A stretch of DNA of 62,308 nucleotides, filler included, from Collodictyon triciliatum (Eukaryota): the NCBI GenBank assembly GCA_043381765.1. It is 17 parts of 17 records of this genome, joined end to end, with 100 filler letters (N's around TTAATTAATTAA, not from the genome) between each part and the next. Parts side by side here need not be neighbours in the genome. Positions count along the whole stretch, not along the records: positions 55,073 to 58,643 come from JBHJMP010007135.1; 16 more parts are not named here. One strand, written 5' to 3'. Under the pieces are notes generated by a model. That model saw only the letters and a list, made by a program, of their open reading frames with translations. It searched no databases and had not been told where the DNA came from. A program made the translations under genes and the position numbers. Each line of letters begins with the position of its first letter. Position 1 is the first letter of the stretch. Of this stretch, positions 3,575-58,643 are shown piece after piece.

Positions 3575-3674
3575 NNNNNNNNNNNNNNNNNNNNNNNNNN
3601 NNNNNNNNNNNNNNNNNNTTAATTAATTAANNNNNNNNNNNNNNNNNNNNNNNNNNNNNNNNNNNNNNNNNNNN
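3575..3674. other. Artificial contig linker (N-run + TTAATTAATTAA + N-run, 100 nt); first of 16
   Basis: The same 100-nt spacer, with stops in all six frames, recurs at ~7249, 10923, 14597, 18269, 21941, 25613, 29284, 32955, 36625, 40295, 43965, 47633, 51301, 54973 and 58644. Intervening contigs are all ~3.57 kb, consistent with length-sorted unplaced contigs. Confidence 0.97.
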
Positions 3675-7248: not shown

Positions 7249-7349
7249 NNNNNNNNNNNNNNNNNNNNNNNNNNNNNNNNNNNNNNNNNNNNTTAATTAA
7301 TTAANNNNNNNNNNNNNNNNNNNNNNNNNNNNNNNNNNNNNNNNNNNNT

Positions 7350-44792: not shown

Positions 44793-46671
44793 ATTTTTTA
44801 GAGGAAGGTGTATGGATATTTTGAATGATTGAAAGAACTTTGTTGAGTATATTTATGGCGCTGTTAAAGTCCTTTGTCAGGAATACACTTTGTTTGCTTT
44901 CTGAGCGATTGCATTCTTTACATATGAGAAATCAAACACTTTTTTTTTTGAGTTTCCTTTCGGTGTCATATATTCCAGTTCTTTTTCGCAGTTGCAGCAC
45001 ATCTTGGACGTTCTAAATTCATTTACATCAACCGTTTCAAAACGTTTGGATAGTATTTTTCGTAATCCTCTTCCGATTGTTGGCATAAAATGGTTCGTCC
45101 GATAATTTCTGCCCCAGTCTCCATACGCCAGTACAAAATCCTCGCCAAATGTCTTTTCGATTCGGTTCATAAACAATTGTTCACTTCTTTTTGTATTAAC
45201 ATACTGTCTCCATCTCATCTTACGAAAAGTTACTTGCCCATAAAATCTGGAAAATTATATCTGGCATCTTGATTTCATAGATAAATACTCTCGAAATTTT
45301 TCATAATTGACCGTGCATGAATTATGTTTACTCAGTTCTGTCTCTAAATCGATTAAAAATACTCTTGATGTCTCAAACTGCTGATTCTCTTCAAAAGTCA
45401 TGTGACCAAAAGAAATAGCACTTTGTAAATATGTTGTCATCCACATCCCTTGAGCATTATACTTTTCTTTCTCGCACAAAAGTATTTTGTGATTTTTAAG
45501 AGATTTGCTTTCAAGTCTTCTTTGGTGTGCTGTGTAACGTAATTTCTTACCTGTCCCATCCACCATGCAAACCAAATTAAACTTGCCAGCGTCCAATCTG
45601 ACTATTTTTTTTTGTCGCTAATAAAGATAACTGCTCTTCAAAAAGTACATCTATATAAATACATTTTTGGGTCGTTTGATTAAATTGGATTTTGAATTTG
45701 AAATACCTTTCTTCTCAAACAATAATGACATCGCCAAGCCGTCTGTTTGTATCGTGTATTTAAAAATGTAGTCTGTTCGATGAAAACCCTCTTTTTCATT
45801 TCAAAGAACTTATCCCATAGGGTCTCTTTGCATCCCGATATATTCTTCAGTAATAATGTTTTTCCAGATAATACTAATAGACCTATCAAACATGTGCAGT
45901 ATCTAGAGTAATATGACATGGTATATTGGTAGTTCTTATAGAGATTGGCTAAAACAGTTTGGCTCCGATGTCCTCAAAAATGCGATTCGTGTAAATCAGA
46001 CATGGAATGTGCTTATTCAGATTGACTTTGACGTCATACTCAATACTTTTTACAATATCACTGGGAATCATACGATGCAAATGCGTTGTAGCCCATCCTT
46101 TATATTGTTCTGGTATTTCGAGATTCTTGAAGATGGCTTTCTTTTAACTTTTGTAACTCTGCCTTTTAAACAGCTTCCGTATTATTCTCATCTTTAGGAA
46201 CTGTTTGATTTATGAAGCGCAGTAACCTCTTTACAAAATGTACCTTAATGTTATTATGATAAGGTGCTAGAATTTGCTTCACCAGGTACCATAATACATG
46301 AGACAGTCCAACCAACGGAAAACGTTCTTCTCAGGACAAAAGGAATCGAAATTGTTGAGATAAAAAGTCATGTCGATACTTGTTTCTGGTTTTTTTAAAC
46401 TTGCTGGTCTATCTTGTGAAACTATTCCGACTGTCTTTAAAGCCTACAAAAAAACATTTCATCGATTGTTGGGAGTTGTTGTGATTTCAACATGTAGCAT
46501 CTTGCAAACAGAAAAGTGTCGGTAACCAAGTTATGACACAATAAAACCGTATCTCTGATTTTATCATAGTCATCCGCATTCTTTACAATCGACTTTAGAG
46601 ATGTTTTCACATTCCGATAGTGTTTTTACACACTTTAGATTCTCAGACCCAAGATGGTTTCTTTTCTTCAT
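44791..46671 (-). pseudogene. Fanzor1, copy 2 (~625 codons, frameshifted)
   Basis: LDAGK (RuvC-I D); LRYTAHQRRLES; RKMRWRQYVNTKRSE; YGDW; VNEFRTSKMCCNC (shifted RuvC-II E plus Zn finger); KDFNSAINI (RuvC-III D); TAG at 44791-44793. Confidence 0.92.
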
Positions 46672-47540
46672 CTGAATTTTTGTTTTACTTTTTCCATTAA
46701 AAAACTACCGAGCTTTTAATTTTAATGAAACTCTAACCAATTAGTATCAATTTAATAATAATAATAAAAAAAAAAAGCAACTGCATAAAATCAATTAATG
46801 TAAAATTTAGCATCTACCGAGACTTTCATAATATGCGCATTGTGGCAAACAAACACACGAAGTTTTTTTTTTTGTCGATTTGAGACAAAAAGCTGAGAGC
46901 TGACTCGACGAGTTCGAAAGGACAGCCGCATACCCATTGCGACTGAAAGTCAACATATCGGCCCCAAACAACGTGATTACCGCCGCAAGTGTGGATAGTA
47001 TGCTTTTTTGAAATGCATGTTTGGTGGCAGGTTTATTGGGTTGGGTTCTGTCTGGGCCAAGGCAATGGCTTTTTTGTAATTTTTGAATTTTAATGAAAAT
47101 GATAATATTGTATAAATGGGAAATAATATAATTGATTATATGAATATAATGAGATTATTACGTATTTTTAACATAATTATATATACTAATAACACTATTA
47201 TATTATCCAGGTTGTTTCTTGGATTCATCAAAGCTCCTGCTTTCGTCAAACCAGATTTAATTCGATTGTTTTCTGTGCAATAAACTGCTATATATATGCG
47301 GGTACACTTTCGTTGCATAAAAATTGTAGTGGCTTGAAAGGGATAGAACCAAGCTCGTCACAACCTTTGTTCTAAAGTTTATCCATTTACAGGCTGAATG
47401 AGGCCGAAGAAAAAGATGTTGGAAAAAGAAGGGAAAGATAAATGAATCAGAGCAACTAATAATGAGTACTATAATCATAATTATCTTGCTACCCGTGGGT
47501 CGATGGCTTGAGCCCGAGGCCTTTGTTATTATTGTTGTTG

Positions 47541-47632
<92 letters not shown>

Positions 47633-54702: not shown

Positions 54703-55073
54703 TCGCGGTTTGTACTCTGCGAAAGAGGATGTCTGCTAGGCCATACCATCTGTGAAATCAGTTAATCCACATATGGAAAAGTTTATTGAATCTTGTGTGC
54801 ATCGCGTCAACACCACACTATCAACCAAAACGGAGACAGGCACTTTAGAAAAAGGAAAACAAACAATAATAAAAAAAAGAAAAAAAAGAAAAAAAAGAAA
54901 AAAAAAAAAAAAAAAAAAAAAAAAGAAAAAAAAGAAAAAAAAAGAAAAAAAAAAAAAAAAAAAAAAAAAAAANNNNNNNNNNNNNNNNNNNNNNNNNNNN
55001 NNNNNNNNNNNNNNNNTTAATTAATTAANNNNNNNNNNNNNNNNNNNNNNNNNNNNNNNNNNNNNNNNNNNNT

Positions 55074-55160
<87 letters not shown>

Positions 55161-55789
55161 CTGTTTCTTTCTTTCTTTCTTTGAGGCAAAATTACCAAAG
55201 GTTGATCCATTCTGTGCTTCGCAATGCGAATAAATCTGGTGGTCGCGCTGAGAGACTCCTGAGGAACAAAAAGAAAACACGATGAGGAAGAAAGTCTCCA
55301 TTGCTGAGAAACTATGAACACAGAGAGAGACAAAGGACACATTCCCCAGAAAATAATATTATTACACTGGCGTTCTTTCCTTCTTCTCCCAAACTACCAC
55401 ATTCTAAAGCGAATAAAACAAAAAGCCAGGAAGCAAGCGATCGGAAAAGGGGATCCCGAGAAGGACGAGACCGGCGCCGTGGAATGACCACTGACCGACG
55501 CAAAACGAGAAGGCCGACAAAGCCGACCCAGAGAGCGAAAAGGTCACTTGATTACATCCCTTGCAACATAGGTTATGCACCGAAAACACCGACGATCAAG
55601 ACGCCAGCTACCACTAACCTGTGAGTCAACAAACTATGAATTAGACAGAGCCAACTCTTTGAAACAAATAATAATAATAATAATAAAGGGGAATAAAAAA
55701 GACAGAGCGAGCCCAAGCCATCGACCCACGGGCAGCAAGATAAGTATGAATACAGTGTTCGGTATTAGTTGCTCTGACTCATTCATCTG

Positions 55790-56230
55790 TTTTTTTTCCT
55801 TTTTTTCTCTTTTTCTCTTTTTCTCTTTTTTCCTTTTTTCCTTTTTTCCTTTTTTCCTTTTTTCCTTTTTTCCTTTTTTCCTTTTTTTCTTGTGTTCTTT
55901 TCTCTTTTTTCTCTTTTTTCTCTTTTTTCTCTTTTTTCTCTTTTTTTCTCTTTTTTCTCTTTTTTCTCTTTTTTCTCTTTTTCTCTTTTTTCTCTTTTTT
56001 CTCTTTTTTCCCTTTTTTTTCCTTTTTTTCCTTTTTTTCTCTTGTTCTTTTCTCTTGTACTTTTCTCTTGTTCTTTTCTCTTGTACTTTTCTCTTGTTCT
56101 TTTCTCTTGTTCTTTTCTCTTTTTTCTCTTTTTTCTCTTTTTTCTCTTTTTTCTCTTTTTTCTCTTTTTTCCCTTTTTTCCCTTTTTTCTCTTTTTTCTC
56201 TTTTTTTTTCCTTTTCCTTTTCCATTTTTT
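55790..56230. repeat. Expanded CT-rich (TTTTTTCTC-like) tandem repeat within element copy 3
   Basis: ~440 nt of degenerate pyrimidine repeats. The matching spot in copy 2 (~47405-47440) is a short tract. Confidence 0.85.
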
Positions 56231-56946
56231 CCTCGGTCTCATTCAGCCTGTAAATGGATAAACTTCATTGCAGAGCTTGTGACGAACTTGGTTTTATCCC
56301 TTTCAAGGAACAACACATTTTATACAACGAAAGTGTACATATAAATATATAGCAGTTTATTGAAAGGCTAATCATCGAATTAAATCTGGATTGACGAAAG
56401 CAGGAGCTTTGATGAACCCAAGAAACAACCTGAATAATAAAATAGTATGATTAGTATATGTAAGGTTATAAAATACTTCACGACCTCATTCTATTCCTAT
56501 AATTAATTTCCATTTTATTTTTCATTTAGGTAATATTAAAATTCAAACATTCAAATATTACAAACAAGCTGTTGCCTTGGCCCAGACAGAACCCACCCTA
56601 TAAGCCTGCCACCAAACATGCATTTCAAAAAAGCACACTATCCACACTTGCGGCGGTAATCATGTTGTTTGGGGCCGATATGTTGACTTTCAGTCGCAAT
56701 GGCTGTACGGCCGTCCTTTCGAACTCGCCGTATCGGCTCATCGTTATGTCTCAAATCACTTACAAAAAAAACTTTGTGTGTTTGTTTGCCACAATGCGCA
56801 TATTTTGAGAGTCTCGGTAGATGCTTAATTTTACATAAATTGATTTTGTGCAGTTATTTTTATTTAATTGACGGAATGACTGAAGTTTTATTAAAATTGA
56901 AAACTCGGTAGTTTTCTAAAGGAAAAAGTAAAACAAAGACTTTCAG

Positions 56947-58465
56947 ATGAAGAAAAGAAAACATCTTGGGTCTGAGAAACTAAAGTCTGTAAAATCAGAC
57001 TATCAAAATGTGAAAACATCTCTAAAGTCGATTGTAAAGAATCTATATGACTATGACAAAATGAACGGTACGGTTTTATTGTGTCATAACTTGGTTACCG
57101 ACACTTATCTGTTTGCAAGATGCTACATATTGAAATCACAACAACTCCCAACAATCGATGAAATGTTTTTTTCGTACGCTTTAAAGACAGTCGGAATAGT
57201 TTCACAAGATAGACACGCAAGATTTTTTAAAAAAAAAAAACCAAAAATGAGTATCGGCATTATGACTTTTTTATCTCAAAGATTTTCGATTTATTTTGTC
57301 CCGAGGAAACGCTTTCCGTTGGTTAGACTGTCTCATGTATTACCGTACTTGGCGAAGCGAGTGTTAACAGCTTATCATAATAACATTAAGGAAAATTTTG
57401 TAAAGAGGTTACTACGCTTTATAAATCATACAGTACCTAAAGATGAGAATATGATGGAAACTATTAAAAAGGCAGAGTTACGAAGTTAAAAAAAGACATC
57501 TTCAAGAAACTCGAAATACCGGAACAATATGAAGGATGGGCTATAACACATCTGCATCATATCATTCCCAGCGATGTTGTAAAAAAGTATTGAGTATGAC
57601 ATCAAAGTCAATCCAAATAAGTACATTTCATATCTGATTTACATGAATCGCATTTTTGAGGATATTTGAACCAAACTGCTTCAACCTATCTCTATAAGAA
57701 CTAACAATATACCATGTCATATTGCTCTAGAAACTGCATGTTCGACAGGTCTATTTGCATCATCTGTAAAACATTAAAAATGAAGAATATATCAGGATGC
57801 AAAGAGACCCTATGGGATAATTTCTATGAAATGAAGAGGGTCTTTCATCAAAGAGACTACAATTTTATATGCATGATACAAACAGATGGCTTGGCAGTGT
57901 CATTATTGTTTGAAAAGAAAGGTATTTCAAATTCAAAATTCAAATATAATCCAATAAAATCAAAAACCCAAGAATATATTTATATAGATGAATTTTGCGA
58001 AGAGCAGTTATCTTTATTAGCGACAAAAAATAATAGTTGGAGTGGGCACAGGCAAGTTTAATTTGGTTTACATGGTGGATGAGACAGGTAAGAAATTATG
58101 TTACACGGCTCACCTAAGAAGACATGATAGCAAATCTCTTAAAAAATCACAAAATGCTCTTGCACGAGAAAGAAAAGTAAGTACAATTCTTCAGGGGTAT
58201 GCACAGTAACAGATTTACAAAGTGCTGTTTCTTTTGGTCACAGGACTTTAGAAGAGAATCGGCGGTTTGAGACATCAAGAGTATCTTTAATCGATTTAGA
58301 GACAGAACTGTGTAAACATAATTCATGCACCGCCGATTATGAAAAAAATCGCTCAGAAAGCAACCAAACTATATTCTTGACAAGGGACTTCAACAGCGCT
58401 AAAAATATACTCAACAAAGTTCTTACAACCCTTCAAAATATGCTAACACCTTCCTCTAAAATTAG
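56947..58465 (+). pseudogene. Fanzor1, copy 3, internally deleted
   Basis: MKKRKHL..; IPCHIALET; IQTDGLAVSLLF; VGVGTGK (RuvC-I D changed to G). A deletion at ~58346 removes the GDW, EFRTS and CCNC region. TRDFNSA is retained. Confidence 0.9.
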
Positions 58466-58582
58466 ACTGTTGGGTCTCTCCTGGCAGCCTTCACCACTAC
58501 ACAACCTCTGTTGAAAAAGCGGTGATACCTTGGATACTAGCGCACCAGGTTTACCTATCGAAAGATGGTTTACTACTTCTAG
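58464..58582 (+). ncRNA. Candidate Fanzor omegaRNA scaffold, copy 3
   Basis: Same series of stem-loops as copies 1 and 2, ending at CTAG 58579-58582. Confidence 0.65.
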
Positions 58583-58605
58583 TCTACCCGCATAAAGCCC
58601 TGCCG

Positions 58606-58643
<38 letters not shown>

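Follow-up and report, generated by a model that had tools for sequence, protein, structure and literature searches.

A putative Helitron-type 3' end that may also have closed the guide-RNA scaffold of a decayed Fanzor1 transposon in Collodictyon triciliatum

The DNA analyzed here (the window) is a stretch of 62,308 bases from the genome of Collodictyon triciliatum. It is not one locus but a set of 17 unplaced contigs of ~3,570 nt each, arranged in order of length, with N44-TTAATTAATTAA-N44 linkers between them. Three copies of one element, designated A, B, and C, lie on separate contigs (A on 33055-36624, B on 44065-47632, and C on 55073-58643), and these three copies, together with public relatives, form the data base of the analysis. 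By blastn, the copies are 84 to 87% identical to one another, which is roughly 85% and corresponds to ~15% divergence. Homology of copy A to B and C begins ~75 nt upstream of the ATG of its gene, beside a (TATTG)n run that contains an N14 gap, and copy A may be 5' truncated. When the whole window was searched with a profile of the last 70 nt of the element (E < 0.01), only these three places were found, and none of the other 14 contigs carried a further terminus. Microsatellites start or finish most of the window contigs, including those bearing the three copies. As a separate observation, the Pfam-positive open reading frames (ORFs) of the window are those of ordinary intron-split eukaryotic genes, encoding a proteasome AAA ATPase, a protein kinase, U1-70K, and Vps39. 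The coordinates of the element and its parts are collected in Table 1.

Table 1. Features of the three element copies, in window coordinates
Feature	Coordinates	Strand	Basis and remarks
Element, copy C	55667..58582	+	blastn, three-way alignment; 3' limit exact, 5' limit is the extent of traceable homology with copy B
Element, copy B (most complete)	44674..47563	-	blastn, three-way alignment; contig ends in (AAT)n, 5' end missing
Element, copy A	33148..35297	-	blastn, three-way alignment
Fanzor1 pseudogene, copy C	56947..58514	+	tblastn with P0001; stops, frameshifts, ~387-nt internal deletion
Fanzor1 pseudogene, copy B	44755..46671	-	tblastn with P0001; stops and frameshifts
Fanzor1 pseudogene, copy A	33228..35224	-	tblastn with P0001; poly(A) expansion within the frame
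Predicted guide-RNA (omegaRNA) scaffold region, copy C, decayed	58464..58582	+	RNA fold
Predicted guide-RNA scaffold, copy B	44674..44792	-	RNA fold; four consecutive hairpins and 13-nt tail
Palindrome, copy C, imperfect, loop GAAA	58553..58569	+	ssDNA fold, -2.0 kcal/mol
Palindrome, copy B, perfect 7 bp, loop TTTC	44687..44704	-	ssDNA fold, -6.6 kcal/mol
Palindrome, copy A, degenerate, loop GAAA	33161..33177	-	Alignment, fold
13-nt tail ending in CTAG, copy C	58570..58582	+	Alignment; last stretch common to the copies
T after the end, copy C	58583..58583	+	Present in 3/3 copies; either the host T of an A-T target or the last base of the element

The gene carried by the element is, by its sequence, a Fanzor1 gene, and it is dead in all three copies. 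We used as a query P0001, an intact metagenomic protein of 648 aa whose matches to Fanzor1 proteins of solved structure (those of Guillardia theta, Parasitella parasitica, and Spizellomyces punctatus) have E values of 2e-28 to 4e-23. In tblastn searches, the whole P0001 gene mapped onto each copy, with the ATG at 56947 in C, 46671 in B, and 35224 in A and with the tail of the ORF ending ~60 to 80 nt before the element boundary described below. The longest open piece, of 211 aa (copy A, 33511-34143), is 59% identical to P0001. The TnpB-like split RuvC (D...E...D) and zinc-finger motifs are present in copies A and B, and B has kept the RuvC-I motif LDAGKFN, the RuvC-II/zinc-finger motifs VNEFRTSK and CCNC, and the RuvC-III motif KDFNSA. 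In copy C, the RuvC-I Asp is replaced (GVGTG), and the RuvC-II/zinc-finger part has been lost through the ~387-nt deletion. Pfam support for a TnpB-like protein was confined to a weak Cas12f1-like TNB match (E = 0.01, below the cutoff), and P0001 itself had no match.

The window gene is intronless, and no intact, expressible nuclease gene is found among the three copies, each of which has stops and frameshifts. Identity between the copies is even along the element, at ~82 to 95% per 60-nt window; extra constraint on the 3' end was considered and rejected, identity being even over the whole element. Judged from this pattern, the copies are decaying neutrally; they are relics of a Fanzor1 element that no longer amount to a working system.

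The right-hand limit of the element is sharp, and in a three-way alignment a single column is the end of homology in all three copies. Copy C ends in CTAG (58579-58582) followed by T at 58583, and copy B, on the minus strand, ends in CTAG finishing at 44674 followed by T at 44673. Copy A, also on the minus strand, ends in CCAG (33151-33148), one transition from CTRR, and is followed by T at 33147. The boundary reads AG and then T throughout, and the next base, which is G, C, or T, differs among the copies. Past the T, we found no likeness between the flanks in local alignments set against 5000 shuffles (p = 0.76 for A and C, 0.37 for A and B, and 0.37 for B and C). A blastn extension through a (CA)n run, which lies 24 to 34 nt beyond the boundary in both A and C, had suggested flank homology between these two copies, and this was rejected on the same shuffle p of 0.76. 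The pentamer CTRRT makes up 0.28% of the 5-mers of the window (333 of 120470, both strands), or about 1 in 360. The boundary pattern is not a product of chance, and the boundary is a real transposon end. An earlier note on this DNA had stated that homology stops at CTAG before T in two copies and at CCAG before T in one, and it had proposed an alignment of the 3' ends as the check. Run on the three window copies, that alignment bears the statement out, with boundaries converging on one column and unrelated flanks beyond it.

It is very improbable that this limit is not a transposon end at all but marks where a segmental duplication stops or is an artifact produced when a repeat-rich genome was assembled into short contigs. 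Such an origin would suit copies that sit on ~3.57-kb unplaced contigs ending in microsatellites, two of them with a (CA)n run shortly past the boundary, but it would not explain why homology gives out at one and the same base in all three pairwise comparisons, with unrelated flanks beyond. Moreover, a divergence of this size means that the copies are neither allelic nor collapsed, and what they contain is a transposon-borne gene family.

Immediately inside the boundary, the element carries an AT-rich palindrome of 17 to 18 nt. The earlier note had placed a short hairpin ~12 to 13 nt before the end, and the palindrome is indeed there, ending 13 nt before the boundary in A, B, and C. Folded as single-stranded DNA, it has significant stability only in copy B (-6.6 kcal/mol, z = -3.66), where 1 of 200 shuffles was as good. 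The copy C palindrome folded no better than shuffles (z = 0.12, with 101 of 200 as good), and the same was true of copy A (z = 0.88, with 166 of 200 as good, for a folded range that is 4 nt short of the end). The palindrome is decayed in these two copies. Between conserved stem arms, copy B has the loop TTTC, an exact inversion of the GAAA found in A and C. An inversion confined to the loop is what would be expected from hairpin-mediated template switching on a once-perfect palindrome, and on this ground the ancestral element very likely had a good stem at this position.

The palindrome is also the last structural feature of a longer stretch. The last ~120 nt of the element consist of codons of the ORF tail and a 60- to 80-nt untranslated stretch, and the consensus fold predicted for this region strings several hairpins together ahead of the 13-nt tail. 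For the last 123 nt of copy B, the prediction is four consecutive hairpins with a free energy of -44.7 kcal/mol (z = -5.86), which 0 of 200 shuffles equaled. The corresponding folds of copies C and A were no better than those of shuffles (C, z = -0.84, with 37 of 200 as good; A, z = -1.22). Compensatory changes were found in 0 of the 29 pairs predicted across the three copies, a comparison in which neutral decay leaves little covariation to be expected. The 13-nt tail of the window copies paired with no upstream segment (449 to 491 of 500 shuffles were as good), and Rfam returned no match on the copy B contig, its only hit being a spurious CrcZ far under threshold.

Fanzor guide RNAs are placed by the available text of two reports between the end of the ORF and the right end of the element, where they overlap the terminal repeat and the guide extends beyond it (PMC10530073, PMC10432273). 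The 3' stretch of the window element sits where such a scaffold is expected, and in the ancestral element it most likely encoded one. The proposal in the earlier note that the end doubles as the end of the scaffold was upheld in part: its position and the copy B fold speak for it, and the weak folds of A and C, the absence of covarying pairs, and the dead state of the copies speak against it. Because all of the copies are dead, any dual function would be ancestral and has to be reconstructed rather than observed.

These same features bear on another reading, which we consider improbable, namely, that the terminus is a Helitron end only, the Fanzor1 gene being cargo picked up in the way that Helitrons capture genes of their hosts, the hairpin serving solely as a DNA termination signal, and the RNA fold having no part in guiding. 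All of the gene copies are dead and evenly decayed, the fold is significant in only one of them, and covariation is absent, as simple capture would have it; in the available text of PMC10530073, moreover, the Fanzor borne by a Chlamydomonas Helitron2 formed a ribonucleoprotein whose cleavage activity was undetected. A random capture breakpoint, however, would not be expected to put the element end 60 to 80 nt past the ORF tail, a distance that compares with 44 to 105 nt in the relatives described below, and the copy B fold is far better than chance.

The relatives come from JGI metagenome contigs, in which at least 556 stretches encode relatives of the protein; we fetched the best 80 (L001-L080). 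P0001 is 38 to 47% identical to the loci of these best 80. A complete, uninterrupted ORF of 585 to 651 aa is present in 78 of the 80; the ORFs of the remaining two, L024 and L028, are cut off by the end of the contig ahead of the stop codon. Among these best 80 of at least 556, the element ends are sharp and lie 44 to 105 nt past the stop codon, and the same 3' tip motif occurs within 200 nt of the stop in 73. Terminal inverted repeats (TIRs) of 28 nt, with no more than 5 mismatches, the form TACACC...GGTGTA, and TA tips, bound 54 of the best 80 at both ends, and the elements that they delimit are 2.35 to 4.85 kb long. Most of the other 26 of this set are short of upstream sequence or variable. 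The left and right TIRs co-vary between subfamilies of the relatives.

At six loci examined, the neighboring genes encode an mRNA capping enzyme, the ribonucleotide reductase small chain, HSP70, topoisomerase IA, and rhodopsin. These are genes typical of giant viruses, and the neighborhoods suggest that the six loci are viral. In four of the six, the interval from the left TIR to the Fanzor gene encodes a DDE_3 plus HTH transposase. Read from their termini and transposases, the carriers of this lineage whose ends can be resolved are Tc1/mariner-IS630-type elements and not Helitrons; the available text of Bao and Jurka (PMC3627910) assigns SPu-1 and the viral Fanzor1 elements to the same TIR type. 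Searches of viral contigs gave 0 matches to a conserved 21-nt motif and 0 confirmed relatives of P0001.

RNAalifold, applied to the 3' ends of 68 relatives, predicted 20 base pairs, 10 of which show compensatory changes, and had the outermost 11 to 13 nt of the element pairing with an internal segment ~60 nt upstream. In this lineage, then, comparative evidence backs the general claim that the tip of the transposon is also the final stem of its 3' RNA, and any Fanzor element can be expected to have a stem at its end. The terminus of the window element is unrelated in sequence to the TIR of the relatives.

Canonical Helitrons insert between A and T, have neither TIRs nor target site duplications (TSDs), and carry a hairpin about 10 to 12 nt from the 3' end. 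The definition given in the available text of PMC3627910 comprises one 3'-subterminal hairpin, a 5'-TC, and a CTRR-3'. The window element has a 3' CTRR in two of three copies (CTAG in B and C, with CCAG in A) and a T as the first 3' flanking base in three of three, on contigs that lack the 5' junction. An inverted-repeat scan of the three contigs, in which the 5' ends lie outside the available sequence, found no partner for a TIR. When the terminal 40 nt were reverse complemented and aligned locally with the available upstream sequence (up to 3.5 kb in copy C), again no partner emerged, with 252, 150, and 125 of 300 shuffles as good. Two inverted matches between the 3' flank of copy B and the 5' region of the element, one of 15 nt and perfect and the other of 18 nt with one mismatch, were set aside as chance (blastn E = 0.1). 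The 3' flank of copy C contains no repeat of at least 6 nt found in the 1.9 kb upstream, the 5' junction lying outside the defined sequence.

Pfam detected no RepHel, no other Helitron or PIF1-type domain, and no transposase among the 125 ORFs of the window, which samples only 17 small contigs. Within these bounds, the earlier note was right on both counts, in that TIRs are lacking from the sequence at hand by both the scan and the shuffle-controlled alignment and RepHel is lacking from the window ORFs. No DDE_3 remnant was found in the window by tblastn with the transposases of four relatives (best E = 0.59). TA is absent from the element boundary, and copy A has no TA near its end. The end signatures of CACTA/EnSpm and hAT were also considered and rejected: each of the three copies has a different base after AGT, and the final five bases depart from the hAT pattern.

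The call of a Helitron-type terminus made in the earlier note therefore stands only in part, at the level of a reasonable guess. In its favor are the CTRR in two of three copies, the T in all three, the palindrome, and the absence of a detectable TIR; against it are a hairpin that does not discriminate and the fact that the nearest resolvable relatives are TIR elements. Since those relatives also end in an RNA stem, a terminal hairpin is no evidence for a Helitron, and, no copy reaching the 5' end, the comparison with Helitrons covers half of their defining features, which keeps the label a guess.

A doubtful but possible alternative is that we are looking at the right end of a Fanzor1 transposon of another kind (a DDE/TIR element, a Crypton, or an undescribed type), the left end of which lies outside the contigs. 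On that view, CTAG before T arose by coincidence, and the hairpin would be nothing more than the final stem of the scaffold. None of the three window copies includes its left end. Among the best 80 of at least 556 relatives, the carriers with resolvable ends are bounded by TIRs whose tips are TA (54 of 80), with DDE_3 in 4 of 6 loci. Their tip pairs internally, with compensatory changes in 10 of 20 pairs, so a terminal stem needs no Helitron. In addition, hAT, Mariner/Tc1, and CMC elements are the commoner carriers of Fanzor1 in published surveys (available text of PMC10530073), and among reported Fanzor carriers Helitrons form a minority. A coincidental CTRRT, on the other hand, is expected at only 0.28% of positions, and here a T comes next in three of three copies. 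Furthermore, the boundary lacks TA, the terminus has no inverted counterpart upstream (up to 3.5 kb in copy C), no DDE_3 remnant was found, and the terminus is unrelated to the TIR of the relatives.

With these rivals set out, the reading that we prefer, and to which we give about an even chance of being correct, is that the right end of copy C (58551-58583) is an end of the Helitron type, with which the guide-RNA scaffold of a nonautonomous Fanzor1 transposon was also closed. The ancestor would have been a DNA transposon without a transposase of its own, carrying a Fanzor1 RNA-guided nuclease. Its last ~120 nt would have encoded the omegaRNA scaffold, with the small palindrome as the last stem; the 13-nt tail would have led from that stem to the boundary, and the guide would have been read from the flanking DNA beyond, as in TnpB and other Fanzor systems. 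The carrier was most likely a Helitron mobilized in trans, presumably by a RepHel encoded elsewhere. Given such a carrier, the palindrome would also have been the rolling-circle termination signal.

A stronger version of this reading, which we hold only tentatively and think somewhat unlikely, has a CTRR-type Helitron using Fanzor1 as IS200/IS605 elements use TnpB, with one module of ~30 nt being at once the RepHel termination hairpin and the stem and tail of the scaffold. On this version, each insertion would rearm the nuclease with its new flank as the guide, directed against the donor site, resealed to A-T, or against an empty site.

The closest published parallels are the Fanzor1 genes in nonautonomous Helitrons of Chlamydomonas reinhardtii, for which the available text of Bao and Jurka (2013, PMC3627910) names CRe-1, -2, and -3 and that of Jiang et al. 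(2023, PMC10530073) describes CrFNuc, a Helitron-borne Fanzor1 with an RNA at the 3' end of the element. As those texts describe them, the Chlamydomonas elements resemble the window element in carrying the Fanzor1 gene inside an element that has no transposase of its own and in having intact 3' ends in copies that are often 5' truncated or internally deleted. They likewise have a structured RNA at the 3' end (conserved there and predicted in the window), and mobilization by RepHel in trans is assumed for them as for the window element. They differ in being Helitron2 elements, which insert after TTTT and have a hairpin at each end, asymmetric terminal inverted repeats, and often variable TSDs. 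The Chlamydomonas Fanzor1 genes have many introns, whereas the window gene is intronless, and the window end, CTRR before T, is of the Helitron1 type, the termini having been compared by their published description.

With canonical Helitron1 elements, the window element shares the 3' CTRR and the flanking T, and no TIR was found in the sequence searched; it also has a palindrome at a distance of 13 nt from its end, although one that is AT-rich and weak in two of three copies. With the TIR-bounded Fanzor1 elements (SPu-1 of Spizellomyces, the viral Mariner-Fanzor elements, and L001-L080), it shares the Fanzor1 lineage, an intronless gene for a protein of about 620 to 650 aa, and a predicted structured 3' RNA region that reaches the tip of the element, the ORF there ending 44 to 105 nt before the end. 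Those elements, however, have TIRs of at least 28 nt, TA tips, and in some cases DDE_3, and the available sequence of the window element has none of these.

IS200/IS605 TnpA-TnpB offers a looser analogy, as a TSD-free HUH transposon that recognizes hairpins, whose right end is the 3' end of the omegaRNA scaffold and whose flank supplies the guide; the window element may have worked in a comparable way. IS200/IS605 is prokaryotic and has a Y1 HUH transposase rather than RepHel. The parallel between HUH/Helitron plus Fanzor and the peel-and-paste of TnpA/TnpB has already been drawn, in the available text of PMC10432273, and is resumed in that of PMC13565253 and PMC10288648.

That Fanzor1 occurs in nonautonomous Helitrons and that its guide RNAs end at the right end are both already published, and the idea is not new in kind. 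The text of the Fanzor-Helitron literature available to us describes no canonical CTRR-type Helitron with Fanzor1, although supplements or Repbase may list some; a 2026 review (PMC13565253, available text) mentions Repbase entries for further Helitron-Fanzor cases. If the Helitron reading is true, the canonical CTRR-type Helitron would join the carriers of Fanzor, which the available text documents so far only for Helitron2 of Chlamydomonas. The window would then show, at the level of sequence, one structure acting both as a rolling-circle termination hairpin and as a guide-RNA stem, and the element would represent a eukaryotic rebuilding, on a Helitron1 backbone, of the partnership between an HUH transposase and an RNA-guided nuclease. 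It would bear on how RNA-guided nucleases aid the persistence of HUH transposons in eukaryotes. With only dead copies, an idea already in the literature, and no 5' ends, which would be decisive, this case has limited value. Of more use are the metagenomic relatives obtained along the way, in which covariation shows that the TIR tip bound by the transposase also forms the stem that closes the 3' RNA. That covariation gives direct comparative support to the dual use of a transposon end, in TIR elements rather than in Helitrons.

The stretch analyzed consists of 17 unplaced contigs of ~3,570 nt each, chained in order of falling length. Every joint between them is an N44-TTAATTAATTAA-N44 linker (positions 3575-3674, 7249-7348, and so on), such that distances and neighborhoods spanning a linker are biologically meaningless. 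The coordinates of the features discussed here for the three decayed Fanzor1 copies, A, B, and C, are collected in the table.

We compared the subterminal hairpins that end 13 nt before the base at which homology among the three copies stops and found that copy B has the loop TTTC, exactly inverted relative to the GAAA loop in copies A and C, between stem arms that are conserved in all three. The difference between the B loop and the A/C loop looks like a palindrome flip through template switching.

Features of the three Fanzor1 copies (window coordinates)
Feature	Copy A	Copy B	Copy C
Subterminal hairpin	33161-33177	44687-44704	58553-58569
(CA)n run past 3' boundary	33055-33113		58607-58643
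(AAT)n run		47560-47632	55667-55685
Shared region 5' of Fanzor ATG		46671-47563	55667-56946
Internal deletion (C) and matching segment (B)		44910-45297	58346/58347
Poly(A) run	34600-34700		
T/C-rich block			55790-56225
15-nt inverted match, 3' flank / 5' region		44618-44632 / 47196-47210	
18-nt inverted match, 3' flank / 5' region		44205-44222 / 46939-46956	

Copies B and C also have in common ~0.9 to 1.25 kb upstream of the Fanzor ATG. This shared region gave no match in Pfam and showed no similarity to the DDE_3 transposase found in relatives of the element; it may be captured DNA, the remnant of a second gene that has decayed, or simply a long 5' region. Within it, copy C carries a T/C-rich low-complexity block of ~430 nt that is absent from copy B. 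Copy C has in addition lost ~387 nt internally, removing the segment that encodes RuvC-II and the zinc finger; short similar sequences are present at both breakpoints. In copy A, a poly(A) run of ~100 nt falls within the reading frame; like the T/C-rich block of copy C, it is a simple-sequence expansion internal to the element.

Microsatellites lie beside all three copies. The 3' boundary is followed by a (CA)n run after 24 nt in copy C and after 34 nt in copy A, unlike in copy B, where no such run follows, and (AAT)n repeats sit directly 5' of the point at which B-C homology begins, in both B and C. The element may have inserted near microsatellites, the homology may continue through the repeat, or the pattern may be a bias due to contigs breaking at microsatellites. 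Two inverted matches between the 3' flank of copy B and the 5' region of the element, one perfect over 15 nt and one of 18 nt with a single mismatch, were rejected as being at chance level (blastn E, 0.1).

The metagenomic family to which these copies are related is very large, with at least 556 matching stretches. Its elements are TIR bounded, TA tipped, and 2.35 to 4.85 kb in length; in the long forms, the opposite strand encodes a DDE_3/HTH transposase. Among the best 80 loci, which we fetched, 78 contain a complete Fanzor1 ORF, and the remaining two are cut off by the end of the contig. The host contigs reach 255 kb, have a GC content of 19 to 37%, and carry giant-virus-type genes.

We aligned the last 150 nt of each of these elements (alignment A4). 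At the outer edge of the right TIR, 11 to 13 nt pair with an internal segment ~60 nt upstream, and a stem in the ORF tail also covaries strongly; one of its pairs, for instance, is CG in 34 of the sequences, UA in another 19, and AU in 13. This is comparative evidence for a TIR tip that also contributes to the 3' RNA fold. The small GTAGG...CCTAC hairpin immediately after the stop codon is missing, through a 15-nt deletion, from L023, L026, L036, L040, and other loci, and the ORF end of this subfamily is also different. There are, therefore, at least two architectures of the 3' RNA among the metagenomic elements.
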